Shown here: positions 19,599 through 36,681 of the stretch, piece after piece
How positions within the stretch are numbered: the stretch's first letter is position 1
How the letters are laid out: each line of letters starts with the position of its first letter
DNA from: Anaerolinea thermophila
GTDB taxonomy: Bacteria > Chloroflexota > Anaerolineae > Anaerolineales > UBA4823
Assembly (NCBI GenBank): GCA_020724505.1
Contig: DYGV01000002.1
Coordinates: forward strand, 29,619 to 70,005
Direction: 5' to 3'
DNA: 40,387 nt
Position numbers and translations under genes: made by a program
The notes under the pieces: model-generated
Told to the model about the DNA's origin: nothing
The model's input: the letters and a program-made list of their open reading frames with translations, nothing else
Database searches by the model: none

Positions 19599-19656
19599 GG
19601 CGTTCAAGCAGATCGAAGCAACTCCTTCGGCAATCGTTCTTGCCAAAAAGTCTGGC

Positions 19657-20205
19657 TCAATCCAAAACATAAATCCATAGACTTTCCCTACATTCCGCTG
19701 ACGGGGTGGTCAGTTTTCGCCACGCAATCGCGAGTTCAAGATCGAAAAGTATGCCGACATTAAGAACTGAACATTCATAGGCAGAAGAGTTTCTGGGTAA
19801 TGATAATAGTGGGTTGGTATCCGAATATCGAAAAACCCGATTGCGCCTGGCGCGTTGAATTGCCCGAATTTCGTTCGGCGGAATCATCGTGAAAACAAAC
19901 TTGCCGTTATTGTCCCCGTTCAAACAAACCAGTACATCTGGATTATCAACTTGCTCGATTACGCTGAGATTAACAGGAGAGCCGCATACTTTTGATGTAA
20001 CTTGGTTCAACCAAACTAAAGCGTCAGGGACTTGCACCGTCTGTGCCAGATGTTCGCGTTTTATCTTCAAATCCTGGACCGACCAGAGGACCACCTGTTC
20101 CCTCAATCCATCAATCGCCTTCCTCTGTCGTTCATTCCCCATGCTGATCAATGCTCCAAAAAAGATCACCGCAGATGCTACAACAATTGCAAGAAGTATT
20201 TCCAT
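19657..20205 (-). CDS. hypothetical protein with N-terminal TM anchor
   Basis: MEILLAIVVASAVIFFGALISMG; last gene of the minus-strand operon. Confidence 0.75.
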   Translation of the reverse strand: MEILLAIVVASAVIFFGALISMGNERQRKAIDGLREQVVLWSVQDLKIKREHLAQTVQVPDALVWLNQVTSKVCGSPVNLSVIEQVDNPDVLVCLNGDNNGKFVFTMIPPNEIRAIQRARRNRVFRYSDTNPLLSLPRNSSAYECSVLNVGILFDLELAIAWRKLTTPSAECRESLWIYVLD

Positions 20206-20223
20206 TTTTACTTTTCCTTTTCG

Positions 20224-22344
20224 TTATTTGTTTTTTACAAAATCATCTTTTGATCGTGCAGACTTAGCCTTGAACGTTTCGCTCAACCGTTTCAAAGCCT
20301 TGGGGCGCGGATCAACCACACTAGCCGATGCGATTACCATGAATAAACCCAGCAAGCCGACGATCTGCCAGACCGGTAGGGATGGTTGAACAGGCTCAGG
20401 AGTTTTTTCAGGCATTGGCGTGATGAATAAGAGTGTTGGCGTCGGCAATATTTGTGTTGCGGTTGGTGTCACCGAAGGAATCAAAGTGCTTGTCGCCGTC
20501 GGGAATGGGGTAATTGTGGCGGTAGAGGTCGCCACCTGCGGTATCACGATCCTACCCGCATCCTGCCCACACAGTTCATTCACATCACAAGCCTCTGCCA
20601 GAACCGGGTATTCTCCTGCTGGAGCCAACGTCCCATCCCCAAAGCGCCGATCCCATTTCACGGGATGGGATTTTTTTCCGGGATCGAATTCCAATCTCAC
20701 CTCCGGCCAGCGATTTTGAGGATCACGGATCGTTACCTGAATGGTCGCGATTGGGAAATGGTTGGGGGATATCTTCAACTGCCCAGTTTCCCAAATCCAC
20801 CACCGTTCCGTGATGGACACAGCAGGCGGGGCATTATCTACAGTCAGCCTAACTGAAACCACATCGCCAGCATTGCCGGCACGATCCCTGCCGCGCATTT
20901 GCAGGATGTACTCTCCGTTTGGCACTTCATTGGAATGCCATATATAAGACCAGGTACTCCCCGTCCCCATATACACAGCCTGCCAGGTAGCTCCGTTATC
21001 GAGGGAAATTTCGCCGCTGGCAGGACCGGACATTTCATCTTCCAACGATCCTGCTACATGCGCCTCTCCCTGCATCACCTCACCATTTGAATGCGATGTA
21101 ATTTGAGCCACGGGGGCAATCGTATCCACACGGATTACCTTGGATACCACCACTTCATTTCCAGCCACATCCCTGGCATGGATCAATACCCGTTGGTTTC
21201 CATCCATGAATTGGATAGGGAATGAGATCCAGGTCGCGCCTTCATCCATGCTGCCATTTAGGGAAGAAAGCCCGGAGATTGCGTCGGCGGCGGTTGCCGA
21301 CAGAGTCACTTGTGACACATACCAGCCATTCCTGCCATCCACCGGAGGAAGGATCACATTGAGGTTTGGAGATGTGGCATCGCGTTGCCATGCGGAAGAG
21401 CCATTGGCTGTACGTCCGCTAGTTGAAGTTACCTGATAATTGGCAGATCCAATTCCTTCCGGCACGGGTAGACTGCAGGTACTTCCACAGGTGAAAGGGA
21501 CACCATTCAAGTCTCCAGTAATCGTCACATCAAACCCTTGCGGATCGCTGGCCATCAATTCGAGACCCTCATTCCCTCTGCACCAGCCGGCGTCTCCCCA
21601 GAGATCGCAGACCACCGACCCCGTGATTTGTGGGGGCAGAGGTGTTGGAGTGGGCGAAGGTGTGTTGGTGTATGTGGCTGTTGGTGTAAAGGTCAGGGTC
21701 GGCGTAAACGTCAGTGTAGGTGTAAGACTGGGCGTAAAGGTTGCGGTCGGAGTCAGCGTTGCTGTGGGAGTAAATGTGGGTGTCCGCGAAGGGGTGGGTG
21801 TGGCAGTGGAAGGCGGACCGACATATTCCACATCAATGGAACGAAAATCCACATAGCCGCCCGAAGCGGTCAGGGACCAGGATCGACAACCCGCTGGAAC
21901 GGGGATGTCCATGCTGACAAATCCCGGCAGACCTGAGCCAGTGCGTAGGTACCATGTATTCACTGAGGAACATGCCCGCAGCACGGCGCTGCCCACACTT
22001 GAGTCAGGGGTAAAGCCGACCATGATCTCGAAGTATGAGACATCCCGGTCAAAGGAACCGCTGGCAACACCACCATTGCCCAGCCGTGTGACCCACTCGG
22101 AACAGTTGGAACCGCAAAATGTTCCACCTTCCTCAGGTGGAAGCGAGGATCCATCGCGATGCGTAATGTACACATACTGGGTAGAACCACTCCAATCGAT
22201 ATATCCCAAGTCATGCGCCTGGTCATAGGTGCGACCTTCCTGCAAAACAATTCCCGCAAGGGGTGCTGCATGAGTGGAGGCGGATGTCCATAAAAAGAAA
22301 ATTGGAAGGAATAGGATTATCTCAATCCATCGAAAACGCTTCAT
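20224..22344 (-). CDS. cell-surface protein with Ig-like repeats, Thr/Pro linkers and C-terminal TM anchor
   Basis: Signal peptide; DAISG, ARDVAGN, GRDRAGN, VDTIAP Ig-like motifs; C-terminal WQIVGLLGLFMVIASA followed by a basic tail. Confidence 0.85.
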   Translation of the reverse strand: MKRFRWIEIILFLPIFFLWTSASTHAAPLAGIVLQEGRTYDQAHDLGYIDWSGSTQYVYITHRDGSSLPPEEGGTFCGSNCSEWVTRLGNGGVASGSFDRDVSYFEIMVGFTPDSSVGSAVLRACSSVNTWYLRTGSGLPGFVSMDIPVPAGCRSWSLTASGGYVDFRSIDVEYVGPPSTATPTPSRTPTFTPTATLTPTATFTPSLTPTLTFTPTLTFTPTATYTNTPSPTPTPLPPQITGSVVCDLWGDAGWCRGNEGLELMASDPQGFDVTITGDLNGVPFTCGSTCSLPVPEGIGSANYQVTSTSGRTANGSSAWQRDATSPNLNVILPPVDGRNGWYVSQVTLSATAADAISGLSSLNGSMDEGATWISFPIQFMDGNQRVLIHARDVAGNEVVVSKVIRVDTIAPVAQITSHSNGEVMQGEAHVAGSLEDEMSGPASGEISLDNGATWQAVYMGTGSTWSYIWHSNEVPNGEYILQMRGRDRAGNAGDVVSVRLTVDNAPPAVSITERWWIWETGQLKISPNHFPIATIQVTIRDPQNRWPEVRLEFDPGKKSHPVKWDRRFGDGTLAPAGEYPVLAEACDVNELCGQDAGRIVIPQVATSTATITPFPTATSTLIPSVTPTATQILPTPTLLFITPMPEKTPEPVQPSLPVWQIVGLLGLFMVIASASVVDPRPKALKRLSETFKAKSARSKDDFVKNK
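21631..21813 (-). repeat. Thr/Pro-rich coding repeat (TPT[AL]T[FL] units)
   Basis: TATPTPSRTPTFTPTATLTPTATFTPSLTPTLTFTPTLTFTPTATYTNTPSPTPTPLPP. Confidence 0.8.
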
Positions 22345-22353
22345 AACTAACTC

Positions 22354-22521
22354 CTAATATTCCTGGAAATCCTGGATGCCGAGATGGAAGAGGAAGAGCA
22401 ACAAAACCACCAATGCCAGGAGCACCAGACAGGCGATCATGAAAACCCTGATCGGGATCACCAGCCCGAGCAAATACCCGGCAAAGATACCGATCCCAAC
22501 CCCTGCAAAGAACCTGAGCAT
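22354..22521 (-). CDS. small 2-TM membrane protein (55 aa), not in ORF track
   Basis: MLRFFAGVGIGIFAGYLLGLVIPIRVFMIACLVLLALVVLLLFLFHLGIQDFQEY; GGAG RBS; fills the operon gap exactly. Confidence 0.7.
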   Translation of the reverse strand: MLRFFAGVGIGIFAGYLLGLVIPIRVFMIACLVLLALVVLLLFLFHLGIQDFQEY

Positions 22522-22522
22522 T

Positions 22523-22873: not shown

Positions 22874-22998
22874 CGATCCCATCCATTGTCCCTTCGAGAC
22901 ATGATCCAGGCTGCATAAAGGACGACCGCACCCACAACCACACAGGCAAGCGGAACGCCACACACCACTACTATCAAACGCAACACCATCGCGATCAT
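22870..22998 (-). CDS. small single-TM protein (42 aa), not in ORF track
   Basis: MIAMVLRLIVVVCGVPLACVVVGAVVLYAAWIMSRRDNGWDR; TGATG overlap with the VirD4-like gene and ATGA overlap with the next gene. Confidence 0.65.
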   Translation of the reverse strand: MIAMVLRLIVVVCGVPLACVVVGAVVLYAAWIMSRRDNGWDR

Positions 22999-25475
22999 CA
23001 GAATCCCAGCCTCCGTTCATCTTCCCGGGGTGAAGGCTGGTGAATCTGGGTGTTGTTCTGTTCCTCGATTCGCACTGCCAGGAATTCATCCAATAATTTG
23101 GAAAGGGCTGTCGGAAGCATGTTCTCCAATGCGGCGGATGCCTTTTCCTGCCATCCATCAGCAGGCAGATAATCGGTCGGATGAGAAGCAATCACTTCCT
23201 CGATCAACGCCTTCACTCTGCCTGTATCGGCTCGTGGCAGTGGCTTGATTTGAGTCAACGTGGGTGGCTGCCAGCGACCACCGATACGCGCGCGCAACCA
23301 GCATTGCAGGGAAGGCAGGTCAAGGGTCATATTGCCGTAGCGCACCGTGGAACTTAACGTAGCGCGGATCAAGTCGGCATCCTCGGGATCGGGCGAGAAG
23401 AACATCTGGGTGGAAGTGTTGGCAAGCATGGCTTGCACGACCGGCTCCATGCCTTCCACCTTGCGCATCATGGATAAGGACTGTGCCAGCACGAACATGC
23501 GTGCTCCGAACTTCGCTCCCTCCGCCAGCATGGACTCCAACCTCATGCCCGAACCGATCTCCTGCGCTTCATCCACGATGAAATAAAAAGGCACACTCTT
23601 TTCAAGAGTCGCCTTGCGATAGGCGGCATCGAAAACGTTGTACAAGACACTTGCCGTAAGCCTTGCGCCTTCGCGTCCCATCTCACCGGAAGGCAACCGC
23701 AATACAATCCAAGCGCGCTCCTCGATCCATTGGTTCATCGCCACAAAGCGATCCTGGTGCATGGCGGAAAACAACCAGGGGGAGAGTTCCAATGCCATCA
23801 CTTTCGAGAGCACCGGACTGATCACTTCCGTGACCCAGCCCTGACTCCACTTATCCCCTTCGCCAGTTTGTCCAAGCAGGGCATCCAATGCCAAGGCTCC
23901 CATGCGTTCGCCGGGAGGCAATAGCGCCATCGCCTTGTGCCGCCAGGTCTTGTTGAACGCCATGAAGACCACATGCAGCAGTCCAAGCCCGGCTTCGGGA
24001 TGATGCTGGTTCCAAACATGTGCGAGACGGAATAAGCCCAGCAAGGCTGCCTGCATACGCGGACCCCAGTAATCATCCCAAATGCGCCGACCGATCTGTA
24101 CGATGGCATTACCCGCCCAGGTGAAATCGGGAACAGCCAGCAAGTTCAATGGAATAACCTGCGGTTGATCCGGCGTGATAATTCTTAATCTCTTGATCGC
24201 CTTGCTTCTTTGCTCTTCCGGCAATTGGGCAATCGCATCCAAAAATGCATCTGCCAATGACACATGCGGATCGGTGAGGAAGATGCCAGGCGCATCATCA
24301 CCCCGGGCGAGCAGTTGTTCCAGCATGGCAAAGACGAAGGATGATTTACCACTGCGACTGCCACCGGTTGCCAGTCCATGACCATCCGGATCCACACCCA
24401 CGAGTTCACCTGTGGCGACACTCTGCCCGATCTTGAAGCCTGCCTCGAGTAACGGCTGGGAAGGCGGAGGCGCAGGTACTTCCTGCCAGACGGCACGATC
24501 CAACAATCCAGACCCTTCTCCCAATTGCAGGGGAGCGATGAGTCCGGCGAGTTCACCCGCGGGTAATGGGAAGGTATGTTTTTGGATATCTGGCCAGACC
24601 TCGCCCAATGGACTCCAGGACTGTCGTCCTGCAAGCAATGGCAGTTCAAACGGAGCGGATAGAGTGATAGCCGTTTTCAACAAGGGTTCTTGAATGCGCC
24701 GCTCCAATACTTCCTTCGGGATCGAGCGCCATTCCAACCAGTTACGAATGCCCCAAGCTGAGGCAAGACAGATTGCAATTCCCGCGATCACGAACATCAG
24801 CACAGGCAACGGATTGAACCAGCCAGCAAACAGGATGCCACCGCTGATGCCCGCCATCAACATGCCAAGGAATAGTCCGGCGCGCAGGAAGTCTAACTGC
24901 AAGCCCCATGAATTTGGGGTATTGTTTTCCACACCGCCTTCGGTTCCATACGAATAAGAAGAAAGACTGCGCAGCTGTTCCTGTAGTTCATCCTCATTTC
25001 CCAGCAACCACAACCGCAGACTGGACTCCTTTCCTTCACGTGCCGCACTGATCAAGCGACTGCCGATGGCAAGCAGGGGATCACTATCTTTGGCAGAGGC
25101 AATCAGGGAGGGCAGACGATTGGAGGAATGCAAGGCATGACCACTCCCCTGAATGGCGACGATCCCCAATGCCCGCCAACGGGAATGTTGTCCCGTCATG
25201 GCAGACCAGGATTGCACAACGCCCTCCGCTACATGAGGAGGTAGATACAAACGCACGCGCATTCCTTTGGGTGAAGCGATCCATTCCACAATCGAAGGAT
25301 AGGGAAGTTGTCCCATCCAGCTCATGACCTGCGCGCGAAGATCATCCAGGGCATGCGGAGCAAAGAGCAATTCCCAGCTCTGCCATTCTCCTTTGCACAA
25401 CGGACAATTTTCAGGAGTGGATGCAAACTCATAACCACAATGAATGCACATGTACCCGTTCTTTGGGTAAATCAT
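22998..25475 (-). CDS. VirD4/TraG-like type IV coupling ATPase with N-terminal Zn-ribbon and 2 TMs
   Basis: GGSRSGKS Walker A, LTDPH, FIVDEAQ Walker B, LAEGAKFGARMFVLAQS, MLANTST. Start re-called to ATG 25475 (AGGAG RBS, ATGA overlap). Confidence 0.8.
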   Translation of the reverse strand: MIYPKNGYMCIHCGYEFASTPENCPLCKGEWQSWELLFAPHALDDLRAQVMSWMGQLPYPSIVEWIASPKGMRVRLYLPPHVAEGVVQSWSAMTGQHSRWRALGIVAIQGSGHALHSSNRLPSLIASAKDSDPLLAIGSRLISAAREGKESSLRLWLLGNEDELQEQLRSLSSYSYGTEGGVENNTPNSWGLQLDFLRAGLFLGMLMAGISGGILFAGWFNPLPVLMFVIAGIAICLASAWGIRNWLEWRSIPKEVLERRIQEPLLKTAITLSAPFELPLLAGRQSWSPLGEVWPDIQKHTFPLPAGELAGLIAPLQLGEGSGLLDRAVWQEVPAPPPSQPLLEAGFKIGQSVATGELVGVDPDGHGLATGGSRSGKSSFVFAMLEQLLARGDDAPGIFLTDPHVSLADAFLDAIAQLPEEQRSKAIKRLRIITPDQPQVIPLNLLAVPDFTWAGNAIVQIGRRIWDDYWGPRMQAALLGLFRLAHVWNQHHPEAGLGLLHVVFMAFNKTWRHKAMALLPPGERMGALALDALLGQTGEGDKWSQGWVTEVISPVLSKVMALELSPWLFSAMHQDRFVAMNQWIEERAWIVLRLPSGEMGREGARLTASVLYNVFDAAYRKATLEKSVPFYFIVDEAQEIGSGMRLESMLAEGAKFGARMFVLAQSLSMMRKVEGMEPVVQAMLANTSTQMFFSPDPEDADLIRATLSSTVRYGNMTLDLPSLQCWLRARIGGRWQPPTLTQIKPLPRADTGRVKALIEEVIASHPTDYLPADGWQEKASAALENMLPTALSKLLDEFLAVRIEEQNNTQIHQPSPREDERRLGF

Positions 25476-27217
25476 CGTGTGACTCCTGTAGCGCCTAACT
25501 GCTTCCAAAACTGGATCCATGTGGGAGGAATGGAGACCAATACCGGGAACAATGCACCACGACCCGCAGAGGGAGCGGCGAGGAATACACGCGGAGGCAG
25601 GCGCGAAGTAGTCTCAGCATTCTTGCGTGCTTCACTTTCCGGCACACCCAGTGAACGATAGAAGGCAAAAGCCTCATCAGGTCCAAGCCGACCGATGAAC
25701 GCGGTGGATGCCAGACTCAACGAAGTAGGATTCTTCATCAGATCGGCAGGCAGGTGCGTGATGAGGGTGACGCCGACGCCACGCTTGCGCGCCCGCCTGC
25801 CTAATTCATCCAGCAGATCGGTGAAAGGACCACTGCGCAACAAACGCCAACCTTCATCAATGAAGATGTCCATCGGCTGTTTGCCGACCGTGACCGCATG
25901 ATAGAGAAACCATGCCAATATCGAATGAACAATGGCGCGGTTCTCTTCGCGCAGGGAGGAGAGATCGAAGTTCCACCATTGACCGGCAGGAAAGTGCGGA
26001 GAGAAAAGTGCCTTGGGTCTATCGAAGAACCCCTCGAATAATCCACCGCGCATGAAGGGTCTGAGCAGCGCCAATGGCATGGCGGCTTCGGGTGCATTGA
26101 TCGTTCCCAACGTCTCCACGAATTCAGCAATGGACATCGTACCGGGCCTGCGCTCCCATCTGCGCTTCACGGCTTCATGCAAGGCCGCCTGTACACCTGG
26201 TGATAAAACAGATTCACCTGCAAGAGCCGCAATAAGGAAACGCACCGCCAGCAAAAGTTCAGCAGGGTTCTCCCCTTGAAGCGGATGGATCAAACAAGTG
26301 TCTTTATCCTCTGGGATTCCTGCCGGCACAACCCTGCCGCCAACTGTATCGCAGAGTTTGTTGTTCTCGCCCTCTGGATCAATCGAGATGACCGTGCGTC
26401 CCTGTAATAATCTTTGCAGCATGATCCAACGCAAGAGACTGGTCTTGCCTGCGCCGGGTTCGCCAAGAATTAAAGTTGTCGCATGGGGTGGGGGTGGAAC
26501 AGCCGGATCAAGCCCCTTGGTAAAGGAGAAATGCACATCGCGTCCATCACGGGCATGCGTGCCAATCCAGACTGAATCATCCACAGGCAGGACCTGTCTG
26601 GAAGGTGCAGGCATGAGTGGCAGAGTCTCTTCAAGAAATAAGGTCGGCTCATCCAGTCCGGGGAAAAGTTTTCCACCTGGTTGAAAATGATGTAACGCAC
26701 GCTCGGCGATATAGAAGAGGCGTTGCGCCGTGAGACCACGAGCACGCAAATTGGATTCGATGACTCTGCGCGCGGCTTCGGCTTCCTCAAAGCGATTACG
26801 CTCCACAAAGAGCGCCGACATCAGGGCAATCTTGAAGGCTGGCTTGCCGAAGGTTAGTTCCGACTCGGCGGCATCCATCGCATGATCAGCGGATCGTTCT
26901 GCCAGTGAAGGCCTGCGACCGGTCTTCTCCGCCAGCGCCATCATGAAACCTTCGAAGAGCGTGCGGCGTGCCCGCAGGAAACCGCGTAACACATCCGGCG
27001 GTTCGCGTCGCAAAGCAAGGGAGTATATGACCGGCAGATTGGGATAGAAGACATCCGAGGTCAAACGTGACCAGGGGCGATCTGTCATACCCGGCACACC
27101 TGTGCCGCGCGCAGAGAGCGGCAAGAGATAACCACCCGGAAAGAGCAGATGATCTTCCAACACTTCCACGGCTTCGGAGGCAATCGAAGCAACAAATTGA
27201 TCTTGATGTTCAGGCAT
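25472..27217 (-). CDS. VirB4-like (HerA/FtsK superfamily) ATPase
   Basis: LILGEPGAGKT, SIDPEGE, IFIDEGW, RRARKRGVGVTLITH. Start re-called to ATG 27217. Confidence 0.82.
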   Translation of the reverse strand: MPEHQDQFVASIASEAVEVLEDHLLFPGGYLLPLSARGTGVPGMTDRPWSRLTSDVFYPNLPVIYSLALRREPPDVLRGFLRARRTLFEGFMMALAEKTGRRPSLAERSADHAMDAAESELTFGKPAFKIALMSALFVERNRFEEAEAARRVIESNLRARGLTAQRLFYIAERALHHFQPGGKLFPGLDEPTLFLEETLPLMPAPSRQVLPVDDSVWIGTHARDGRDVHFSFTKGLDPAVPPPPHATTLILGEPGAGKTSLLRWIMLQRLLQGRTVISIDPEGENNKLCDTVGGRVVPAGIPEDKDTCLIHPLQGENPAELLLAVRFLIAALAGESVLSPGVQAALHEAVKRRWERRPGTMSIAEFVETLGTINAPEAAMPLALLRPFMRGGLFEGFFDRPKALFSPHFPAGQWWNFDLSSLREENRAIVHSILAWFLYHAVTVGKQPMDIFIDEGWRLLRSGPFTDLLDELGRRARKRGVGVTLITHLPADLMKNPTSLSLASTAFIGRLGPDEAFAFYRSLGVPESEARKNAETTSRLPPRVFLAAPSAGRGALFPVLVSIPPTWIQFWKQLGATGVTR

Positions 27218-27224
27218 GGATGGC

Positions 27225-27265
27225 ATGATACAAAAAGACACGGATGGGTGGTCCGTCCGTGTCGG
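27225..27265 (-). promoter_or_regulatory. module-specific promoter motif copy A (CCGACAC-N28-TATCAT-N7-ATG)
   Basis: Same spacing as the copies at 36264-36304 and 39162-39202. Confidence 0.65.
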
Positions 27266-27406
27266 TAAAGTGTATAATCCAAGGTGGTTAATGTTTGATG
27301 GAGAATGATCCTTGCCTAATGAAGGCAAATTCTTCCGTTCAAGGATAAGCGCAAAGAATCTTGTTAGTTACAATCTATAATTAGTGGGCCATAAAGGTCA
27401 TTCATC

Positions 27407-28225
27407 ATGAGAGAAAAACCTGAACACATAAAATGGTTAGTGGACACTGGGGAGCGCATTACTACAGTGGATGGAAAAGTTGTGGCTATATGGGAATTTC
27501 AACACCAGAAAGACGAAAGGACTTTATCCGGATGGGCAAAATACTTCCGAAATCACTATTGTTTGGATGATCAGATTGATGAATTGCGTAATGGAACAGG
27601 ATACTCTCGTGCTGACTACTTACTGAATATTAAATTTCCCGATGAAAAAGATGCACCGGGTCCTAGTATTCGCGCTGGCGACTTTGGAGAAATTCTGGTT
27701 GCAGATTATGTCGAATTTGTTCTTGACTTTTGGGTGCCAAGGACTCGTTATATTGACAAAGCTGTTAGAAATGAGTCTACTAAGGGCTCAGACATTATAG
27801 GGTTTCATTTTCTCCACGATGGTGAATTTTCACCTCAAGATGTGCTCGCGATTTTTGAAGTTAAAGCTCAATTTTCGGGAAGTATGGCCAATCCAAGGCT
27901 TCAAGATGCTATCGATGGCTCTAAGAAAGACCAAATAAGAAAAAGCGAAACGCTGAACGCGATGAAACAGCGCTTTCTTGACATTAAAGATTTTCCAGCC
28001 AAAAAACGAATTGAACGATTTCAATCTGATGAAGATAACCCTTATCAAGAAATTTCAGGCGCCGTGGCACTGTTCTCGATTCAACAGTTTGATCCGGAAG
28101 TCATCCATGTGACGTCATCAGCGGATCATCCGAATAATACAAATTTAGTTTTGCTTGTTATTCGTGGTGATTGTCTGATGGAATTGGTACATGAATTATA
28201 CAGAAGAGCTACTCATGAAGCCTGA
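27407..28225 (+). CDS. hamA: Hachiman anti-phage protein HamA (DUF1837, PD-(D/E)xK nuclease)
   Basis: RAGDFGEILVADY, KGSDIIG, FEVKAQ; overlaps the downstream SF2 helicase. Confidence 0.85.
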   Translation: MREKPEHIKWLVDTGERITTVDGKVVAIWEFQHQKDERTLSGWAKYFRNHYCLDDQIDELRNGTGYSRADYLLNIKFPDEKDAPGPSIRAGDFGEILVADYVEFVLDFWVPRTRYIDKAVRNESTKGSDIIGFHFLHDGEFSPQDVLAIFEVKAQFSGSMANPRLQDAIDGSKKDQIRKSETLNAMKQRFLDIKDFPAKKRIERFQSDEDNPYQEISGAVALFSIQQFDPEVIHVTSSADHPNNTNLVLLVIRGDCLMELVHELYRRATHEA

Positions 28226-31200
28226 AGCTAGATCACAGCGTCTTCTGAGCATTACTCAATCGAAGGCAAAAATGTATGAATACAATGTGCCTTTGGAGGA
28301 TCATATTGAAATACCTACGGGTACTAACCCGGAAAGGTTGTTTCCTTTATCAATTGGTTTATTAGGTGACATTGCGGCTAGAATAAACAGTGGTGATCAA
28401 GCTGCTGAAGAGATAATCGAGTTGCGTCAAAGCATTCCGTTTTCGGCACGTTTTTTTGATGCCTTTGTTCAAACTCGCCTGAATCAAGAAATCAATACGT
28501 ATTTGCTTTTACTTGGTTCGGCTGCCTATTATCTATGTGATTTGCCTGGAAGTTCAATTCTTCTCGCTAATCGTGTTGATAATGGGCAATTAAATTTGGA
28601 TGGGTTAGGGTTGGAGAATTTATTGGATTGGTTACTTCAAGGAAATACGTCTATTCCCATACCTAAGATTTCGGCTGGTCCGTATGCATCTGCAAGTGAG
28701 ACAACCTGGTCGCAACTTCAACGATTCGCCGACTCTGGATTGCAAACACCAGAGGCCGTTGATGCAATAGGATTCCTAAGAAACATCGCCTACCGTCATG
28801 GAACGCCAAGACAATTATTATTAGCTGATTTGATTGGAGCGATTGTCAGACGTAAGATTGAGAACTCAACATGGAGTTGCCTTCCCAAATACACTGACCT
28901 TCCTGCATCAGCATGGTCTGATGCAATAAGGAAAGCAACCTTTATACGCGAATTTTGGCCAGCTCAACACATGCTGGGCGAAAAGGGTGTTTTCCGTGGA
29001 AAATCTGCCATAGTTCAAATGCCAACGAGCGCTGGAAAAACCAAGGCGACGGAAATAATTATTCGAAGTGCATTTATGGCGAACCGCACGACCCTCGCCG
29101 TTATTATTGCCCCATTTCGCGCTCTGTGTCATGAAATTAGACAAGGCTTATTGAAAGCATTTCAAGGTGAAGCAATTCAAATTGATGAATTGTCCGATGT
29201 TCTTCAGATGGACTTGTCTATCGCGAGAATATTGGTTGGCAAGGAGGTGCTCGTCGCTACACCAGAGAAGCTTAACTATGTTTTGCGGCATGAGCCTGAT
29301 CTGGCGCAGAGGATTGGGTTGATTATTTATGATGAAGGACATCAATTTGATAATGGTACAAGAGGCATTACTTATGAGCTTTTACTTACATCGCTTAAGT
29401 CAAAAATCTCCGCTAATGCTCAAACAGTGTTGATATCGGCTGTGATTAGTAATGCCGAACAAATCGGAAAGTGGCTTGTTGGGGATGGGGTTGAAGTTGT
29501 TGAAGGATTAGATCTTGTTCCGACATTTCGAACTATTGGCTTTTCAACGATCAGTGACCCAAGGAGAAATCTTTATTTTGTAAATCCGCGCGATTTGGAT
29601 GAAAGCGAATTCTGGGTTCCAAGAATTTTTACCGATTACCAACTTGAGGACGACAGGATTTTCCCTGACCTTTCAAAGGGTAGAGAAATTGCATTATTTC
29701 TGGGTTTGAAACTTTCCAATCAAGGGAGCATAGCTATCTTTTGCGGCACGAAGGATGCCGTGAATAGCATGTGTGGAACGATTGTAGATGCTTATGCAAG
29801 AGGTCTTCCATTGTCAGCACCAATAGAGTTTGCAGACAGGCCAGAAATTCAAAAATTGAAATATCTTCATGAAGTCAATCTGGGTTCTGAATCTGTTTTG
29901 ACAAAAAGCGCTGAATTGGGAATCTTAGCTCACCATAGTAGCGTACCTCATGGGGTACGTTTATCGATAGAGTATGCGGTTAAAGAACGTATGGCCAGCT
30001 TCGTTGTTTGCACTTCAACTTTGGCACAAGGGGTTAATTTACCGATTCGCTATTTGATTATTACCAGCGTGTATCAGGGGAGAGAGCAAATCAAAGTCAG
30101 AGATTTCCAAAATCTAATCGGTCGTTCGGGTCGATCCGGCATGCATACCGAAGGTAGCATTTTATTTGCAGACCCTGTAGTATACGATGAGCGAAATAGG
30201 AGAGGCTTTGGGAAGACTCGTTGGTCGAAAGTTAAAGAGCTGTTAGATCCATCACGCTCTGAACAATGTCAAAGTACTTTGTTTTCATTGTTTGAGCCTT
30301 TTGAAGTGGAAATACCAAGATTGGTGGAGATATATTTGCTAGACAAGGATGCTCAGAAAATTGCACTAGAAGAGATTGCGTCTCAATATGCGGATGACCA
30401 GTCAACCTTGGATAGGTTGATAGGTTTGTTTGCATGGAAAATTAATATCTTGTCTGCGATTGAGAGCTACCTTATGGCAAACTGGAATCCAGATCAAGCT
30501 GTTTTTCAACGGGAAGATGTAGTTTCGTTATCAAAAGGTACTTTGGCTTATTTCTTGGCAAATGATGATCAGAAAAGGCAAATTGAGGAGTTGTTCATTC
30601 TTTTGGCTCAAAATATCGAAACAAATATTCCAGAAGTCCCAAAAAGAATTGTTTTTGGTAAAACTCTTTACGGTGTTCCTGACAGCATTGCAATCTCAAA
30701 ATGGCTGGATGAACATAATTCTGAGTTAGATCCAGAGCTTGACGATCTGGAATTGTTTAACGTTCTTTGGCCCCTTTTGGCGGATTATATCCGTAATAAA
30801 AATTTTAGAAACTGCGATCAACCTGAAGTAATGAAAAATCTCGCGGTTGCATGGGTGAGAGGCGATCCATTTTATGATATTTTTCAAGCTCTCGGAACAG
30901 CAAAGTTAATTGCAAAGACAAGAAGATATAAATACAAACTCGAAAATGTGGTCGATATATGTGAAAATGGTTTAGCGTACGACGGGATCCTGGTAATGGG
31001 AGCCTTGATTGAGTTGATACCGACTTTGCAAATGGACGCTCCGGACTTAGTGATAAATTCGCTCCAACAACTGCAAAAGCGACTTAAATATGGCCTGCCA
31101 AATCGGATAGCGGTCATTCTTTACGAATTGGGTTTTGCTGATCGTGTGGTTGCAATAGACTTGAGTTTGACCTTGTCAGAAGTTTTGCCAGATAAAGATT

Positions 31201-31301
31201 TGGTGGTTCAGGCTTTGATACTTCAAAGAGAAGCAGTTTTTGCCAAGCTTAATCTATATCCATCCTACTTTAGTTATGTTTATCAAAATGTAGCAGCATA
31301 G
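28215..31301 (+). CDS. hamB: Hachiman HamB Ski2-like DEAD/DEAH helicase
   Basis: MPTSAGKT, APFRAL, TPEK, DEGH, ISA, TSTLAQGVNLP, QNLIGRSGR. Start likely at ATG 28215. Confidence 0.88.
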   Translation: MKPEARSQRLLSITQSKAKMYEYNVPLEDHIEIPTGTNPERLFPLSIGLLGDIAARINSGDQAAEEIIELRQSIPFSARFFDAFVQTRLNQEINTYLLLLGSAAYYLCDLPGSSILLANRVDNGQLNLDGLGLENLLDWLLQGNTSIPIPKISAGPYASASETTWSQLQRFADSGLQTPEAVDAIGFLRNIAYRHGTPRQLLLADLIGAIVRRKIENSTWSCLPKYTDLPASAWSDAIRKATFIREFWPAQHMLGEKGVFRGKSAIVQMPTSAGKTKATEIIIRSAFMANRTTLAVIIAPFRALCHEIRQGLLKAFQGEAIQIDELSDVLQMDLSIARILVGKEVLVATPEKLNYVLRHEPDLAQRIGLIIYDEGHQFDNGTRGITYELLLTSLKSKISANAQTVLISAVISNAEQIGKWLVGDGVEVVEGLDLVPTFRTIGFSTISDPRRNLYFVNPRDLDESEFWVPRIFTDYQLEDDRIFPDLSKGREIALFLGLKLSNQGSIAIFCGTKDAVNSMCGTIVDAYARGLPLSAPIEFADRPEIQKLKYLHEVNLGSESVLTKSAELGILAHHSSVPHGVRLSIEYAVKERMASFVVCTSTLAQGVNLPIRYLIITSVYQGREQIKVRDFQNLIGRSGRSGMHTEGSILFADPVVYDERNRRGFGKTRWSKVKELLDPSRSEQCQSTLFSLFEPFEVEIPRLVEIYLLDKDAQKIALEEIASQYADDQSTLDRLIGLFAWKINILSAIESYLMANWNPDQAVFQREDVVSLSKGTLAYFLANDDQKRQIEELFILLAQNIETNIPEVPKRIVFGKTLYGVPDSIAISKWLDEHNSELDPELDDLELFNVLWPLLADYIRNKNFRNCDQPEVMKNLAVAWVRGDPFYDIFQALGTAKLIAKTRRYKYKLENVVDICENGLAYDGILVMGALIELIPTLQMDAPDLVINSLQQLQKRLKYGLPNRIAVILYELGFADRVVAIDLSLTLSEVLPDKDLVVQALILQREAVFAKLNLYPSYFSYVYQNVAA

Positions 31302-31414
31302 AGCGATCTTTTATCCGTGCCGCCAGACGTAAATTTCGCCTCTTTCTTTACGATAATTATGTTGAGATACAACAAAAAATAGCATTATAGTAATCTCAAT
31401 TTCGGAACTAACTA

Positions 31415-31948
31415 TTATCGTCCAACGCGGTCGTAATCCAAATTCGGGTTGAGCACCCAGCGCGTCAATCCTTCAACGGCAGACTGGTCGAGATACCGAA
31501 CACGCAATCCAAAGCCGGCACACAATCCAGTAAGTCCTTCCCACCAAGCGATCCCATCATCGCCTGGTAATACAAATTCCAAAACCGTGCGACGAACAAA
31601 GGGCAGGGAATATTCCTGTATTGCAAGCAGCAGGCCCTGATGCAAAATATCCAATCCTTCTGTACCAGGCGATTTCCAATTTTGTACTTGTTTTTGAAAC
31701 TCCAATCTTGGCTCAGGATCCGGCCAGAACAATTGTAGAAGCCGTAAAGTCCAACCAGGTTGCATGGAAGCTAGAATCGCCTGATACCCCTCCTGCGGTC
31801 TTACTTCTGGTCGATCAGGATCGGCATATACTTCGGCAAACAAACGGCGCGTATCATCCTCACCGATCAAAGCCGCTTGTTTGCCGACCTGCGTAAAGCC
31901 CTTCGCCAATACAAACGTGCGCGTGGAGCCAATAGTCTGTTCCGCCAT
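31415..31948 (-). CDS. hypothetical protein (possible VirB4 N-terminal-like accessory)
   Basis: 177 aa, coupled to cpaF by TAATG; function not recognised. Confidence 0.7.
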   Translation of the reverse strand: MAEQTIGSTRTFVLAKGFTQVGKQAALIGEDDTRRLFAEVYADPDRPEVRPQEGYQAILASMQPGWTLRLLQLFWPDPEPRLEFQKQVQNWKSPGTEGLDILHQGLLLAIQEYSLPFVRRTVLEFVLPGDDGIAWWEGLTGLCAGFGLRVRYLDQSAVEGLTRWVLNPNLDYDRVGR

Positions 31949-33396
31949 TACAGAACTCCCTTGAAGATGGATTCAGGAATATTCAGGTCCGTTGCGCGAA
32001 AGCCAGGTCGCATGGGACGATTGCCGGTGGGGACCAGTCCTTTGCCCTGCTCAAATTTGAATAAGGGTGAGAACGAAGGACGCGCGGCAGTGCGTTCTAC
32101 GATGGTGGAGACTTCCACGATCTCACGCACGATCTGTCCATGCTGGGGATTACGTTCGATATATACCGCAGCCGTTATTGCTTCTGCAAATGATTGGGCA
32201 ATCTGAATTTCAGACATACGTGCCGCATCGGGATGCGCCTGCACCACCTGCAGAAAACGCGGCCAGACATGTTCGGCGCTGGTGGCATGAATCGTAAACG
32301 CCGAATGTCCATGCCCGGTCGCTGCCGCACGGATCAATTCCCAGGCTTCCGCACCACGCGCTTCCCCGATCACCACTCCATGCGGACGGGAACGCAGGGC
32401 CGAACGGATCAGGTCATACATCGTTACCGGCGGAGGACCGCCGCGAATTTCAGGGCGGGTCACCGTATAAATGATATTGCCTGTATCTGCCTTACCATCG
32501 CCATTCCAACCGTTCAAGACAATTTCGTTGCTGTCTTCCACAATAAACAAACGGATCGCACCGCGAGGATAGTAGTCCAGCATCTCCTGAAGGATGCGTT
32601 GCCCGACAAAGGTCTTGCCTGAACCCGTTGTGCCGGCGATGACCAACGTCCCACCATGTACCATCACACTCAGTAAATAGTTGGCAGCTTCGGGGGTAAG
32701 AATTCCATTGCCACGCGGAAAATCCTTTGGATCGAATTTAGGTCTCGGCACAGGCGGAAGTCTGTTCTGACACAGTAGAGCCAGACTTCCATGAGTCAAG
32801 TCGGACGCTGTTCGGTAATTGGAGACACGCAAAGTGATCGTATCCCCATAGGGTGACGCAGGCGGCATGACGTAGTTGATTCGCACGCCCTTCCTCCGTA
32901 CTGTTCCATCGACGAGTGGGACCATGACTTGCAACATCGCATCCGCAATTGGATAATCGGGAGTCGGCGCGCGTTGTCCCGCACGGTCGATCATGACTCT
33001 GAGCGCATCGCCAATTCCATCCGGCGCGGGACCAGCATGTTCCCAACCACTGCTGGTCGTATACACGTAGATATGCCCCAGGTTGATGGCAATGTCTTCA
33101 ATGTCGGATCGCGCAATGAGTTCCAACAACGGTCCCATGCCGGAGAGCTCACCGATCAAGCGCAATATGTACTCAGGCGGTAACGTAACGCCAGCATCAA
33201 TTGCTTGTGTGCTCACTTCTTCAAAGACTTTACGTGCCAGGGCTTCGATCTCCGTGGAGGTCAAACTGCGCTGTAATGATTCGATGGCTTTCTTTGCACG
33301 TCCTTCCTCGGCAAGGATATTCCACCAACGCTCCATCTCATCCGAAGAGCGAGCTTCAGTAACGGGTTTCAGGGTTTTGCCGGCAATATCAAACAT
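31948..33396 (-). CDS. cpaF: CpaF/TadA/VirB11 family secretion ATPase
   Basis: IEDIAIN, AGTTGSGKT, VEDSNE, LIRSALRSRP...IGEARGAE, TGHG...TIHA. Confidence 0.9.
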   Translation of the reverse strand: MFDIAGKTLKPVTEARSSDEMERWWNILAEEGRAKKAIESLQRSLTSTEIEALARKVFEEVSTQAIDAGVTLPPEYILRLIGELSGMGPLLELIARSDIEDIAINLGHIYVYTTSSGWEHAGPAPDGIGDALRVMIDRAGQRAPTPDYPIADAMLQVMVPLVDGTVRRKGVRINYVMPPASPYGDTITLRVSNYRTASDLTHGSLALLCQNRLPPVPRPKFDPKDFPRGNGILTPEAANYLLSVMVHGGTLVIAGTTGSGKTFVGQRILQEMLDYYPRGAIRLFIVEDSNEIVLNGWNGDGKADTGNIIYTVTRPEIRGGPPPVTMYDLIRSALRSRPHGVVIGEARGAEAWELIRAAATGHGHSAFTIHATSAEHVWPRFLQVVQAHPDAARMSEIQIAQSFAEAITAAVYIERNPQHGQIVREIVEVSTIVERTAARPSFSPLFKFEQGKGLVPTGNRPMRPGFRATDLNIPESIFKGVL

Positions 33397-33399
33397 GGC

Positions 33400-34761
33400 T
33401 CATCCTTTCCCGAACCAGCCGCGCTTTTTGGTTACGTTTGGCAACAAGCCAATGCGTGATGCGCCTTCTCGAACAGCGGGAACAAAATGAGCGGCAAATC
33501 CCAAAAGTGAATCCACAAACGGTCCAAGTTCCTCCAACTTTTCTTTTTTGTATCTCCAGACCAGGATGTCATCTCGACGATCAGAGTTCACGGCCTGTGC
33601 CGCAAGGCGCGGATCAACAATAGGCAGAATGCCATTCGGGATCAATGCCAATTCAATTTTGTCTTCACTCAAAGCTTGTTGCAGCATTTTGTGTGCCGCC
33701 TTGAAACCATCGCCCACCACCTGGTTGTAGCAGAGCTTGACACGGCTGCCCACAAATTCTTGTGCACTGCCTTTGCCAACCGCACTTGCCAATGAATTGA
33801 TCATCCTCGCGATCCAACGGCGTGTCTCTGCCAGATCAGGAATCTCCGGCTTGATGACAATCGCAATGCCTTCGGCTGCTTTCAACGCAGCACGATGTAC
33901 GACATGCGCGGGATTGATGCCCACATCCATGATGACCACTCCACCGGCTGCGACCCCGGCTTCGTATAATCCTTGAATGACTTCCGCAACTTTGCCTTCT
34001 TGTTGCAGAACTTCATCACCGAGATCATCGGTGATGAGACCAGGCAGGACTCGTAAGGTGGGCAGGTTATCCAAAGGTGTAAACGCATTGAGATAGGCTG
34101 CCCCCGATGCCACATCGGCCATCACGCCCTTGTTGGCTTTGGCGATCTCACGTCGCAACAAACCGATCATAGTCGTATTCACACGTTCCATGCGCATGTG
34201 ATATTGCAACGCGCCGGCGTTACCATCCGCGTCCACCAGATAGGTGGTGATACCACTGAGCGCTAATGCCACAGCAAGATTAACCGCTACGGTGGTCTTC
34301 CCTGTTCCACCTTTCGGGGATGTAATAGCGATCTTCCTCACCGCCATGCCAGATTGAATGCGGGCAGACATATCACTACCCAACACGGCCCGACGATACT
34401 GATCATCCGCTGCCAGGTTGCCAGCATCCGCACGGCGCATCTCTTCATATAGTTTATTGATGTCTACATCCGAAGGTGGATATGCCAAGGCTGGTACGCC
34501 AACACCATTCGCCCATGACGCCATGCCATCCCCCACACCAGCGATTACAAAGATCAACTTACCGCGCTCGGCGGCCTTGACTAGACTCTCCGGCGATACG
34601 GATGATTCGGGGGAAACCACGATCAAAGCGCGAAAGTCAAACAGGTCAATGTGCTGCGGTGTAAAGGCCGCGATCTGTGCAATAACAGAATGACCCTGCT
34701 CCGCCAGCTGCATATTTAATCGGGATGTCACTGTTCCCGCACCCAATAGCAGAACTTGCAT
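33400..34761 (-). CDS. CpaE/TadZ-like MinD/ParA ATPase with degenerate N-terminal receiver-like region
   Basis: SPKGGTGKTTVAVNLA, LVDAD, VIMDVG; located between cpaB and cpaF. Confidence 0.82.
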   Translation of the reverse strand: MQVLLLGAGTVTSRLNMQLAEQGHSVIAQIAAFTPQHIDLFDFRALIVVSPESSVSPESLVKAAERGKLIFVIAGVGDGMASWANGVGVPALAYPPSDVDINKLYEEMRRADAGNLAADDQYRRAVLGSDMSARIQSGMAVRKIAITSPKGGTGKTTVAVNLAVALALSGITTYLVDADGNAGALQYHMRMERVNTTMIGLLRREIAKANKGVMADVASGAAYLNAFTPLDNLPTLRVLPGLITDDLGDEVLQQEGKVAEVIQGLYEAGVAAGGVVIMDVGINPAHVVHRAALKAAEGIAIVIKPEIPDLAETRRWIARMINSLASAVGKGSAQEFVGSRVKLCYNQVVGDGFKAAHKMLQQALSEDKIELALIPNGILPIVDPRLAAQAVNSDRRDDILVWRYKKEKLEELGPFVDSLLGFAAHFVPAVREGASRIGLLPNVTKKRGWFGKG

Positions 34762-35678
34762 TACTGTCCTCCTCCCAAAACATCTTCGCGATCCTGCTTG
34801 AATAAGTCTTCGAAGTCCCAGTAGGTAAAGCCGGCAGACGGCATTTCATCACCGCGCGCCATCAGGGAAACGATAAGTCTGTCTCCTTGTTGAAGCGCAA
34901 GGGATAACACTTCCCGGCTTTCATTCGGCACAAGCAGGATCAACATTTGCGGCTGGTCCTGGAGATTGAAAGATGCGTTGGAGTTGCTGTCATCGGTTGA
35001 GTCAGTCTGTACGGGCAATCCCTGTACAGCAATGACACGCACACCCATCGGGAACAGGTCCTTGGCAAGCGGAGGCAGTGCGCGACTCAATGCATCAGCC
35101 TGTTCAAGATCAAGCGGTGAAGGAGGCGCCGTGGGTTCGACGTTGGTTCCCGGTTGAAGGATCAATTCCGGCATGGGGGTGGGCGTGCTCATCTGCTGCG
35201 GACGGGTGCTGATCACCACCGTCACGCCAACCAGGTCTCCGGGCAAAAATGCTTCTGCATCTGGTGACACTAGGTTCATCGCATCCAGGGGTAGGGGGAA
35301 TAAACTGTATCCAGGATATTTCGCCAGCACCGCAGAGAGTCGCGTGCCTTCCGCAGCCTGTGCCATAATCGCGGAACGAAAGATGGGTTGTCCATTGAAA
35401 ATCGGTTGGGCAACCACCCCACCGACCACACCGGTTACTTCCTCACCGGGAATATACAGACTGGCATTGTCATCCTGAAAGACAGTCTTCACTGCCAGGT
35501 CACCCGCTGTGATGACATCGCCGATATTAAGATCACGGGTTGCCGACAGAACTGAAATAGTCGGTGGTTTCTGCGCGGCACCGAGAGCGTTTAAGGCAAT
35601 GAACGCCACCAAAAAAATTCCAACCGACACACCCAGCACCACCAGGTTCACGCCGGTCGAGGCAATACGTTTCAACAT
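34761..35678 (-). CDS. cpaB: Flp pilus assembly CpaB/RcpC-like protein (SAF domain)
   Basis: N-terminal TM, VLSATRDLNIGDVITAGDL SAF domain, LPGDLVGV, GVRVIAV. Start likely at ATG 35678. Confidence 0.82.
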   Translation of the reverse strand: MLKRIASTGVNLVVLGVSVGIFLVAFIALNALGAAQKPPTISVLSATRDLNIGDVITAGDLAVKTVFQDDNASLYIPGEEVTGVVGGVVAQPIFNGQPIFRSAIMAQAAEGTRLSAVLAKYPGYSLFPLPLDAMNLVSPDAEAFLPGDLVGVTVVISTRPQQMSTPTPMPELILQPGTNVEPTAPPSPLDLEQADALSRALPPLAKDLFPMGVRVIAVQGLPVQTDSTDDSNSNASFNLQDQPQMLILLVPNESREVLSLALQQGDRLIVSLMARGDEMPSAGFTYWDFEDLFKQDREDVLGGGQ

Positions 35679-36256
35679 GTTTCGTTTCTCCATTCGTTAG
35701 GTTTCCAGGGCAGATCTCCCTGGCTGAATGCCTGCCTTACGGCAGGCGTATTTTCAATGAGTTCTTCCAATTGTTCGAGCGTTTGACGCATAAGCCCATA
35801 TACGGTCAACATGACAAAATCCGTTTGTATATGATTCGACTTGAACAGCTGTTGATGAGCCTGTGCAAGTGTCCGCGCAATCTCCATGACATCAGCATTA
35901 GCCAGCGCTTCCGCCGACACGCGCGGCATATCCGGAAAGCACTCCTGGATTAGATCCGCCACTTCCTGTTGGACGGTTGACGAGTCCGGTTGGATGAAAA
36001 GTTCCGCTACAGGTTGAGAGGGTGGATTGAGCAGGTCGGCGACGGATGTATCCGGATTGGCGCGTAATTGATCAATGGCTCGCGGTAAACGTTTGAGCCC
36101 GGCTTGAATGGCCTCCAACAAACTTGCTTGTGCCTGTGTGGAAAGGGCTGCCACGGCTTCGATATTTCGCACGGAAACATGCGGACGCAGGCTGGCAGGC
36201 AGCGACTCCAGCAACCGCTGTCGGCGTTCCTGTTTGGACTGATACGTCTCACTCAT
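35672..36256 (-). CDS. hypothetical helical protein, first gene of the Tad-like operon
   Basis: Start re-called to ATG 36256 (MSETYQSKQERR), 7 nt after TATCAT. Confidence 0.72.
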   Translation of the reverse strand: MSETYQSKQERRQRLLESLPASLRPHVSVRNIEAVAALSTQAQASLLEAIQAGLKRLPRAIDQLRANPDTSVADLLNPPSQPVAELFIQPDSSTVQQEVADLIQECFPDMPRVSAEALANADVMEIARTLAQAHQQLFKSNHIQTDFVMLTVYGLMRQTLEQLEELIENTPAVRQAFSQGDLPWKPNEWRNETC

Positions 36257-36263
36257 GAGGCGC

Positions 36264-36680: not shown

Positions 36681-36681
36681 A

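Follow-up and report, generated by a model that had tools for sequence, protein, structure and literature searches.

A Tad-like trio, a split VirB4, and a VirD4-like protein in one recurrent gene array of Anaerolineales: a candidate transfer module with an internal cargo site

What kind of machine is encoded when genes typical of a tight adherence (Tad) pilus share one array with the ATPase genes of a type IV secretion system (T4SS)? The question is posed by a stretch of 40,387 nt (hereafter, the window) from the Anaerolinea thermophila assembly GCA_020724505.1 (contig DYGV01000002.1, positions 29,619-70,005 of the forward strand), in which a sequence-only reading had claimed a co-oriented array of cpaB-, cpaE-, and cpaF-like genes continued by virB4- and virD4-like ones. 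We find this array on the minus strand of the window and again in 60 related loci. The explanation that we prefer, with about an even chance of being correct, is that it encodes the transfer machine (the mating-pair-formation, MPF, module) of an undescribed family of integrated mobile elements, with the Tad trio in the VirB11 and localization roles. The 60 loci, from Anaerolineales genomes, come from a reference-genome scan and are the base of all locus counts; they carry L-numbers, and G048 and G263 are closed single-contig genomes. In the genome of the window itself, whose assembly is estimated to be 89.7% complete, the contig bearing the window is C60, and the other array-bearing contigs are C8, C91, C156, and C202. 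Families were matched with Pfam-A and NCBIfam, defense genes with PADLOC, and membrane segments were located with a hydropathy scan.

An open reading frame (ORF) listing combined with family scans recovered every gene named in the earlier reading, with one correction of extent: the array begins further right, at position 39128, with the gene that we call h318. From there it runs through h231, the CpaB-like, CpaE-like, and CpaF/VirB11-like genes, h177, a gap, and the VirB4-like and VirD4-like genes to three small ORFs, an immunoglobulin (Ig)-repeat surface protein, and the single-pass membrane protein TM182 (Table 1). The synteny check was positive: the order, with the Tad-like genes upstream of virB4/virD4, is identical in all 35 loci in which both sides are visible, that is, where h177 lies inside the available DNA; the 25 others are shorter or have no h177 nearby (20 with less than 10 kb of upstream DNA and 5 with 10 kb). 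In three of these last five, whose 10 kb of upstream DNA are empty, the same contig carries cpaF further upstream, at distances of 11, 17.5, and 19 kb. The virD4 gene directly follows virB4 in 54 of the 60 loci, the remaining six ending at a contig edge, and the small ORFs, the Ig-repeat protein, and TM182 are present downstream wherever the DNA of the locus continues. With the same order found again in 60 loci, chance cannot account for the array. Its conserved part is delimited by h318 and TM182, as the flanks outside them show no conservation between loci. In addition, the arrangement, including both junctions with the Hachiman defense system that occupies the gap in the window, is covered without differences by contigs from four other runs belonging to three studies.

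The supposed co-conservation of the Tad and Vir halves was borne out beyond this constant order. They occur in equal copy numbers and on the same contigs in four of five genomes, and in G342, a genome of another family, CpaB-CpaE-CpaF-VirB4N-VirB4C-VirD4 are contiguous and 37-64% identical to the window copy. The two halves are one system because the "Tad half" ends with a piece of VirB4: h177, first listed as a hypothetical protein, is, judging from sequence and from a structural model, the split-off VirB4 N-terminal domain. A single base is shared between its start and the stop of cpaF. Its AlphaFold model (pLDDT 78.6, from a 17-sequence alignment) retrieved TrwK/VirB4 of R388 in all of its top 8 Foldseek matches (best E 2.7e-3, probability 0.94-1.00), and VIA-align placed it on TrwK 16-204 (Z 6.0-6.1, 145-146 residues) or on TrwK 175-378 (Z 7.5), with unrelated ferredoxin-like folds reaching similar scores over fewer residues. 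The VirB4-like ATPase piece aligns from its residue 237 onward to TrwK 433-702, so some 200 residues are missing from its N-terminus, and h177 is of that size. Decisive is P0121, a natural 759-aa protein obtained in a profile search for longer proteins, in which h177 is fused to the VirB4-like part: its residues 7-175 match h177 with 57% identity, and residues 182-751 match the ATPase piece with 66%. Given this identity of h177, the Hachiman system lies inside a split virB4. A complex prediction of the CpaF-like protein with h177 returned no answer (score 0.00) and is no evidence either way. One genome departs from the pattern: in a long-read assembly, virB4 and virD4 are read as a single 1419-aa frame (L045:9998-14257), and the same genome has the VirB4-VirD4 part with no cpaF match at E <= 1e-30, so that either the fusion is genuine and the Tad part is missing, or sequencing has produced an artefact.

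The larger VirB4 piece is over the cut-off of AAA_10 (31.6 bits); with TIGR00929 it reaches 54 bits where the cut-off is 643, and it is therefore a remote member of the VirB4 family. Its best solved relatives are TrwK/VirB4 and the Thermoanaerobacter VirB4 (E 3.5e-5). In a large protein collection it has 260 relatives at E <= 1e-5; among the 120 matches listed, identities are 66-96%, and the named ones belong to Anaerolineales, Anaerolineae, or Chloroflexi. Weak matches extend to 1124 plasmids, 1003 of them predicted to be conjugative, and no relatives were found in viral contigs. Placement relative to the established MPF classes rests on the NCBIfam class-specific VirB4 models, and every score was far under its cut-off. 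The VirD4-like protein exceeds the cut-offs of three coupling-protein families within residues 622-722 (TrwB_AAD_bind, 32 bits; TraG-D_C, 29.4; T4SS-DNA_transf, 27.9). It combines an N-terminal zinc ribbon with invariant CxxC...CxxC, two hydrophobic segments ahead of the ATPase domain, and an invariant Walker A motif, GGSRSGKS; against solved structures, neither its single sequence nor an 11-sequence profile gave anything below E 0.3. The array thus contains both a VirB4-family ATPase and a type IV coupling protein, the two ATPases by which a conjugative T4SS is recognized.

For the three genes upstream of h177, the general domains (T2SSE, CbiA, and SAF) are over their cut-offs, whereas the specific models TIGR03177, TIGR03815, and TIGR03819 are under theirs. 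The CpaB-like protein, 83-89% identical in other loci, scores 25.7 bits with SAF and 47 bits with TIGR03177 (cut-off 71). The CpaE-like protein matches CbiA, AAA_31, and ParA, scores 41.8 bits with TIGR03815, and has a weak match to VirC1 (E 0.008). For the CpaF-like protein, TIGR03819 gives 110 bits, VirB11 96, and TrbB 87, all under cut-off; its best solved relatives are Caulobacter CpaF (70 bits) and, next, Brucella VirB11 (58 bits). From these sequence comparisons and the gene order, the trio appears to be Tad-derived.

These proteins are tightly conserved. The VirB4-, CpaE-, and CpaF-like proteins of the window are mostly 92-97% identical to those of other loci (90-97% in most loci for VirB4 and 95-99% for CpaE), and the 4-fold degenerate sites in the ATPase alignments are 35-54% identical in nearly all comparisons (35-51% for CpaE; 64% for the VirB4 of L039). 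Because the proteins are so similar while these sites are near saturation, the copies must be old, and the constraint on the ATPases must be very strong. Between loci, the identities of the Ig-repeat protein, s116, and TM182 range over 33-80%.

The distribution is patchy. The VirB4-like protein occurs in 4 of 301 sampled Chloroflexota genomes, and the array in 7 of 201 genomes of the order, with 3 of 17 in one family (f2) and 3 of 7 in another (f79); it is absent from all 17 other genomes of its own family, including a 96%-complete genome of the same genus. A genome holds up to 3 copies with different flanks, and the assembly of the window contains pieces of at least 3, all three of which stop at TM182 with different neighbors beyond. 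The five array contigs have a GC content of 0.49-0.51 against 0.543 for the assembly, and in tetranucleotide distance C60, C8, and C91, those of at least 10 kb, take ranks 142-149 of 150. The array thus shows three marks of a mobile element: a patchy distribution, more than one insertion context, and a foreign composition.

A further mark of mobility is the cargo that the locus carries between its two virB4 pieces. Five loci have a gap of only 66-79 bp, and in 30 it spans 1.6-9.8 kb; G048 and G263 have gaps of 10-11 kb, and the longest, elsewhere, reach about 19 kb. Its ORFs of at least 100 aa form 137 groups, for which Pfam was run on 90 representatives and PADLOC on 68 plus 5 proteins of the window's own genome, and the contents differ from locus to locus (Table 1). 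In the window the gap is filled by Hachiman, which PADLOC identified with HamA (370 bits) and HamB (1247 bits) both full length, adjacent, and overlapping, on the opposite strand to the array. Pfam adds HamA, DEAD, and Helicase_C, and the GC content is 0.40-0.44 against 0.51-0.56 around it. No Hachiman-skipping form was seen among the contigs of the four other runs, which does not show that none exists. Three genes, oriented like virB4, make up the LuxC-like module: they encode a LuxC-like acyl-CoA reductase, a 464-aa protein matching no family, and a protein of about 190 aa (for example, L014:5720-7345, L025:1071-2465, and L025:2377-3021). Instead of being cargo, the module may belong to the system as an accessory. 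The DnaE-type polymerase of C156, beside the second virB4 copy (L003:1633-4619), is read as two overlapping ORFs of 617 and 430 aa, possibly through a frameshift or an assembly error.

Another insertion site, smaller than the gap, separates h318 from h231. It is occupied by a 463-aa ORF on C202, and nothing is inserted there in 6 loci or in G048. In the window it holds a histidine kinase and a response regulator, an insertion peculiar to this copy and possibly a local regulator of the array. The left flank of the window carries a MerR-family regulator (2704-3147) and a MerA-like reductase (4303-5736). The latter is 86% identical to the reductase in the gap of L018, so the same cargo is found at different places around the array, and this flank may also be cargo of the element.

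Directly before virB4, nearly all loci present an element composed of an 11-bp GC-rich hairpin, a run of 5-8 T, and an invariant TATCAT, with the ATG seven bases on. Of the 59 distinct copies, 45 were aligned; the folding energies of 39 of these are -12 kcal/mol or below, compared with shuffle means of -2.6 to -8.5, another three form only a weak fold, and the last three form none. Full pairing is retained in at least five stems of different sequence, which suggests selection on the structure. In 6 loci the LuxC module is preceded by this element as well, at an unchanged distance from the ATG. The element occurs only twice in the genome of the window, both times before virB4, and is absent in the clade whose virB4 pieces are 66-77 bp apart. 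Rfam gave no match for the hairpin region, and a generic promoter and terminator scan of it stayed at shuffle level. We infer that the element probably terminates transcription entering from the cargo and then supplies a -10 box from which a leaderless virB4 transcript would start; alternatively, it could be a recombination site.

Table 1. Coordinates of the array and associated features in the window, and features found at the gap between the virB4 pieces in other loci, contigs, and genomes
Feature	Location	Strand	Remarks
h318	38172-39128	-	First array gene; one N-terminal membrane segment; domain without family
Histidine kinase	36682-38175	-	HisKA, HATPase_c
Receiver-only response regulator	36327-36689	-	Response_reg
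h231	35672-36367	-	Conserved soluble protein, no family; probable start near 36265
CpaB/RcpC-like	34761-35693	-	N-terminal membrane segment, SAF domain
CpaE/TadZ-like ParA/MinD-type ATPase	33400-34761	-	CbiA, AAA_31, ParA; N-terminal extra domain
CpaF/TadA-VirB11-family hexameric-type ATPase	31948-33396	-	T2SSE, 68 bits
Predicted VirB4 N-terminal domain, 177 aa (h177)	31415-31948	-	Model fold match; fusion P0121
Hachiman	27407-31301	+	HamA 27407-28225, HamB 28191-31301; PADLOC
Hairpin/U-run/TATCAT element	27215-27264	-	Hairpin 27263-27237, TATCAT 27230-27225, ATG 27217-27215
VirB4-like ATPase, C-terminal 580-odd residues	25472-27226	-	ORF open to 27328; start 27226 or 27217
VirD4-type coupling-protein-like ATPase	22998-25520	-	Three coupling-protein Pfam families
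s42, 42 aa	22870-22998	-	One membrane segment
s116, 116 aa	22523-22873	-	Soluble
s55, 55 aa	22354-22521	-	Hydrophobic
Ig-repeat surface protein, 706 aa	20224-22344	-	Big_3_3, Big_13
TM182, 182 aa	19657-20205	-	Last array gene; N-terminal membrane helix, alpha/beta domain
HigB/HigA/SecB-like set	C156, L029		Gap cargo
QatABCD	L017, L038, L054		Gap cargo
AbiE	L041, L049, L048		Gap cargo
Dsr1-like protein	L019, L043		Gap cargo
PDC-S27	L034, L044		Gap cargo
Type II restriction-modification pair	L023		Gap cargo
PD-T4-6-type kinase	L021		Gap cargo
PDC-M02	L057		Gap cargo
STAND NTPases	L052, L056, L014		Gap cargo
Mercury-resistance genes	L013, L018, L022		Gap cargo
DnaE-type polymerase	9 loci, C156, G263		Gap cargo
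Transposases	L019, L037		Gap cargo
RHS-repeat protein	L055		Gap cargo
LuxC-like three-gene module	14/60 loci, G048, G263		Gap content, directly before virB4
Hairpin/TATCAT element before LuxC module	L018:5830, L021:6492, L039:5759, L048:6492, L054:6491, L063:3516

The closed genomes G048 and G263, which belong to one genus in which 4 of the 6 sampled genomes lack the array, have one full array copy each, and they share a block of about 44 kb with 75-92% DNA identity that extends from TM182 to a 164-aa DUF6011 gene and beyond which the two are unrelated. Besides the array and the LuxC module, this block includes a DnaG-like primase (zinc ribbon plus Toprim), a single-stranded DNA-binding protein (SSB), a DnaN-like clamp, RadC, DUF6908, a DUF6094 methylase fused to an SNF2-type helicase, and group II introns. 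The gap of G263 holds a DnaE-type polymerase and a tyrosine recombinase; the only other recombinases seen were transposases, in some gaps. The primase gene also adjoins the array in the more distant loci L057, L067, and L068, and several conserved neighbors of the array have no family match. Beyond TM182 lie copper-resistance genes in one closed genome and a type III CRISPR-Cas locus in the other, the latter also being present beside one copy in the genome of the window. In G263 the methylase-helicase has intein and LAGLIDADG domains (L079:8808-14261), and the G048 block is broken up by a pair of group II intron reverse transcriptases (L075:1174-2934 and L075:12401-14233).

The remaining array proteins are small or lack family matches. 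The s42, s116, and s55 ORFs overlap or abut, match no family, and have homologues in 32, 41, and 33 of the 60 loci (33-90% identity). The Ig-repeat protein has a signal peptide, Pro/Thr-rich linkers, bacterial Ig-like domains, and a C-terminal membrane anchor, and is 53-80% identical between loci. Contigs of other runs skip 125-131 bases in its linkers (20661-20787 and 21179-21317), which is repeat-length variation between populations. TM182 is present in 35 of the 60 loci (45-63% identity); its model (pLDDT 82.2) has no convincing fold match: when it was considered as a VirB8-like candidate, Foldseek returned nothing at E <= 0.001, and a wide VIA-align search was dominated by matches to its long N-terminal helix (Z about 6.5), which masked the globular part. 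Neither h318, with one hydrophobic segment, nor h231 matches Pfam or NCBIfam. In 6 loci, in G048, and on C202, the gene immediately upstream of h231 is an h318 homologue (55-67% identity), and h231 was found in 14 of the 60 loci, which is wherever the DNA reaches that far; an Atlas look-up of h231 gave only unnamed clusters at 0.90 and no lead.

If the array is an envelope-spanning transfer machine, its working parts would be the split VirB4 (177 aa and about 580 aa), the VirD4-type coupling protein with its zinc ribbon, and the Tad trio. The TadA/VirB11-family ATPase would have come along with its Tad neighbors CpaE/TadZ and CpaB/RcpC, and the trio would replace VirB11 and position the machine. 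The single-pass proteins CpaB, h318, s42, s55, and TM182 may form an envelope scaffold in place of VirB6/VirB8, whereas the fast-evolving Ig-repeat protein, s116, and TM182 might give contact or exclusion specificity. The substrate would be the element's own DNA. The gap between the virB4 pieces would tolerate insertions and be closed on the virB4 side by the hairpin, U-run, and TATCAT, probably stopping read-through and restarting transcription.

The known systems resemble this arrangement in part. Conjugative T4SSs of single-membrane bacteria in the classes MPF-FA and MPF-FATA (for example, those of pCF10, ICEBs1, and Tn916) combine a relaxase and a cell-wall hydrolase with VirB8-like and multi-pass VirB6-like proteins, and are not known to have a VirB11-family ATPase. 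The array shares with them a VirB4-family ATPase, a VirD4-type protein, a large surface protein, small membrane proteins, the lack of an outer-membrane core complex, and, in the reading preferred here, carriage on integrated elements with cargo; in contrast to them, none of those four components was recognized in it, and it has a split VirB4, a TadA/VirB11-family ATPase, CpaE, and CpaB. The VirB/VirD4 system of Agrobacterium works in double-membrane bacteria with VirB2-B3, VirB5-B10, a relaxase, and the ParA-like VirC1. The array has the VirB4, VirD4, and VirB11-family ATPases and a ParA/MinD-type ATPase in common with it, which by analogy could position the machine or its substrate, whereas VirB2-B3, VirB5-B10, and the relaxase are unrecognized in the array. 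The SXT/R391 integrative conjugative elements have variable-cargo hotspots that hold defense systems. A conserved transfer backbone with fixed sites for unrelated defense or resistance genes is common to both, but the main hotspot of the array lies between the pieces of a split virB4 and is bounded by the hairpin and TATCAT before a start codon. According to PMC4027160, VirB11 is seldom found outside MPF-T (19%). We found no published description of a Tad-VirB4-VirD4 array in Chloroflexota in literature surveyed mostly at the abstract level.

Several results weigh against a transfer machine. The search of the flanks for an integrase, a relaxase, and att sites, proposed with the first reading, came back empty. 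Pfam-A found no relaxase in the window, and Pfam and NCBIfam none in about 25 kb on either side of the array in the two closed genomes. PF03432, PF08751, PF03389, and PF02486 had no matches in 5 array-bearing genomes except for one Rep_trans, located 3.5 Mb from the array in G263; this search covered four families and left out the MOBV, MOBH, MOBC, and MOBB models. PF03432 also had no match in the 89.7%-complete assembly of the window, and no HUH-type motif was seen by eye in the conserved neighbors without family, some of which look like spurious ORFs. No integrase stands beside the array or in the window, and the ends of the 44-kb block show no direct repeats of at least 15 bp, only matches of 11-14 bp, which is chance size. 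The window copy has no primase-SSB-clamp block, and no close primase homologue occurs in its assembly. In line with the reading, no Pfam family of VirB6/TrbL-type channels or VirB8 scaffolds was found in any array protein; no array protein has more than two membrane segments, and there is no conserved channel-type multi-pass membrane protein. We also considered that the copies might be recent duplicates or transfers and rejected this, the 4-fold sites being near saturation, and protein conservation as tight as that of the ATPases is unusual for conjugation genes. Finally, the C60 contig may be foreign DNA within the organism or wrongly binned, which leaves the host assignment uncertain: its positions 1-20000 have no DNA match in the same-genus genome and scattered 70-87% matches in family f2. 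The array genes also break the assembly at their most conserved parts, and the bin may mix organisms.

The main rival explanation draws on these same absences. A T4SS-like machine that does not move DNA, or no longer does, could serve in protein secretion, contact or adhesion, or DNA uptake or release, and be carried in variable islands; we consider this rather unlikely. The missing relaxases, the tight protein conservation despite saturated synonymous sites, the window copy without the primase block, and the RHS-repeat protein in one gap would all suit it. It also has a precedent in the Patescibacteria, in which, according to PMC12102498, relaxase-less chromosomal T4SS clusters, homologous to the MPF-FATA class and widespread in the phylum, are thought to serve other functions. 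Those clusters, from a neighboring lineage, resemble the array in being centered on VirB4 and mostly without a relaxase, but the array differs in being rare in its order (7/201), in having the Tad trio, and in standing beside replication genes. What such a machine would leave unaccounted for is the patchy distribution with absence from the same genus, the several divergent copies per genome on compositional outlier contigs with different flanks, the primase, SSB, clamp, RadC, and methylase-helicase block kept beside the array in two closed genomes, and the coupling-protein homologue in 54 of the 60 loci.

A modified Tad (type IVc) pilus, in which the platform is replaced, VirB4/VirD4-like ATPases act in assembly or retraction, and a small hydrophobic ORF is the pilin, is improbable. 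The genome of the window has a canonical Tad locus on a contig of typical composition (C47:15933-22341), with the order Flp-CpaB-CpaE-CpaF-TadB-TadC, a 60-aa Flp-like pilin, and a CpaE with a receiver domain. The array trio has the same order, with VirB4/VirD4 standing where TadB/TadC do; this likeness, the CpaF as the closest solved relative of its ATPase, and the small hydrophobic ORFs of 42 and 55 aa downstream are what a pilus would predict. However, the array lacks the TadB/TadC platform, the Flp pilin, pseudopilins, and the prepilin peptidase of a Tad pilus: no T2SSF (TadB/C), Flp, or prepilin peptidase family was matched by Pfam-A in any array protein or in the window, in agreement with the first reading, which had recognized no relaxase either, and the genome's only T2SSF genes are those on C47. 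Its TadB, TadC, and Flp used as queries gave no matches in the 60 loci. By eye, the small ORFs are without the G/xxxxEY-type signal of Flp, the VirB11 and TrbB models score nearly as well as the Tad models, and the array CpaF is only 25-28% identical to the canonical CpaF of its own genome. The separate Tad locus and the absence of TadB, TadC, and Flp from all loci also contradict the idea that the array is a decayed Tad copy. That a decayed Tad remnant merely stands beside an unrelated T4SS remnant is very improbable, for while the two parts lie 1.6 to about 19 kb apart with unrelated genes between them in most loci and, in one genome, the Vir part occurs with no match to cpaF at E <= 1e-30, all genes are intact under strong purifying selection, the order is kept in 35 of 35 loci, the parts are 26-79 bp apart in five loci and the divergent G342 copy, and the last "Tad" gene is itself a VirB4 piece, fused to the rest in P0121.

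Conjugation machinery is divided into eight classes, drawn almost wholly from well-studied phyla. To our knowledge, Chloroflexota are nearly blank on this map, while being abundant in groundwater, sludge, and sediments. We tentatively put forward, as a possibility short of probable, that the array represents a new class of DNA-transfer machine of Chloroflexota, in which a Tad ATPase was captured in place of VirB11, with no VirB6/VirB8 or known relaxase, with its own primase, SSB, clamp, and DnaE-type polymerase, and with a cargo landing site in a split virB4 insulated by a hairpin. The three tightly conserved ATPases are good structural targets. The split virB4 with its internal site is a clear example of how Hachiman, Qat, AbiE, and metal-resistance genes may be collected and spread. 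If the reading as a transfer machine is true, a mixture of pilus and secretion parts without a recognizable relaxase and with replication genes of its own would widen the known routes of gene transfer.

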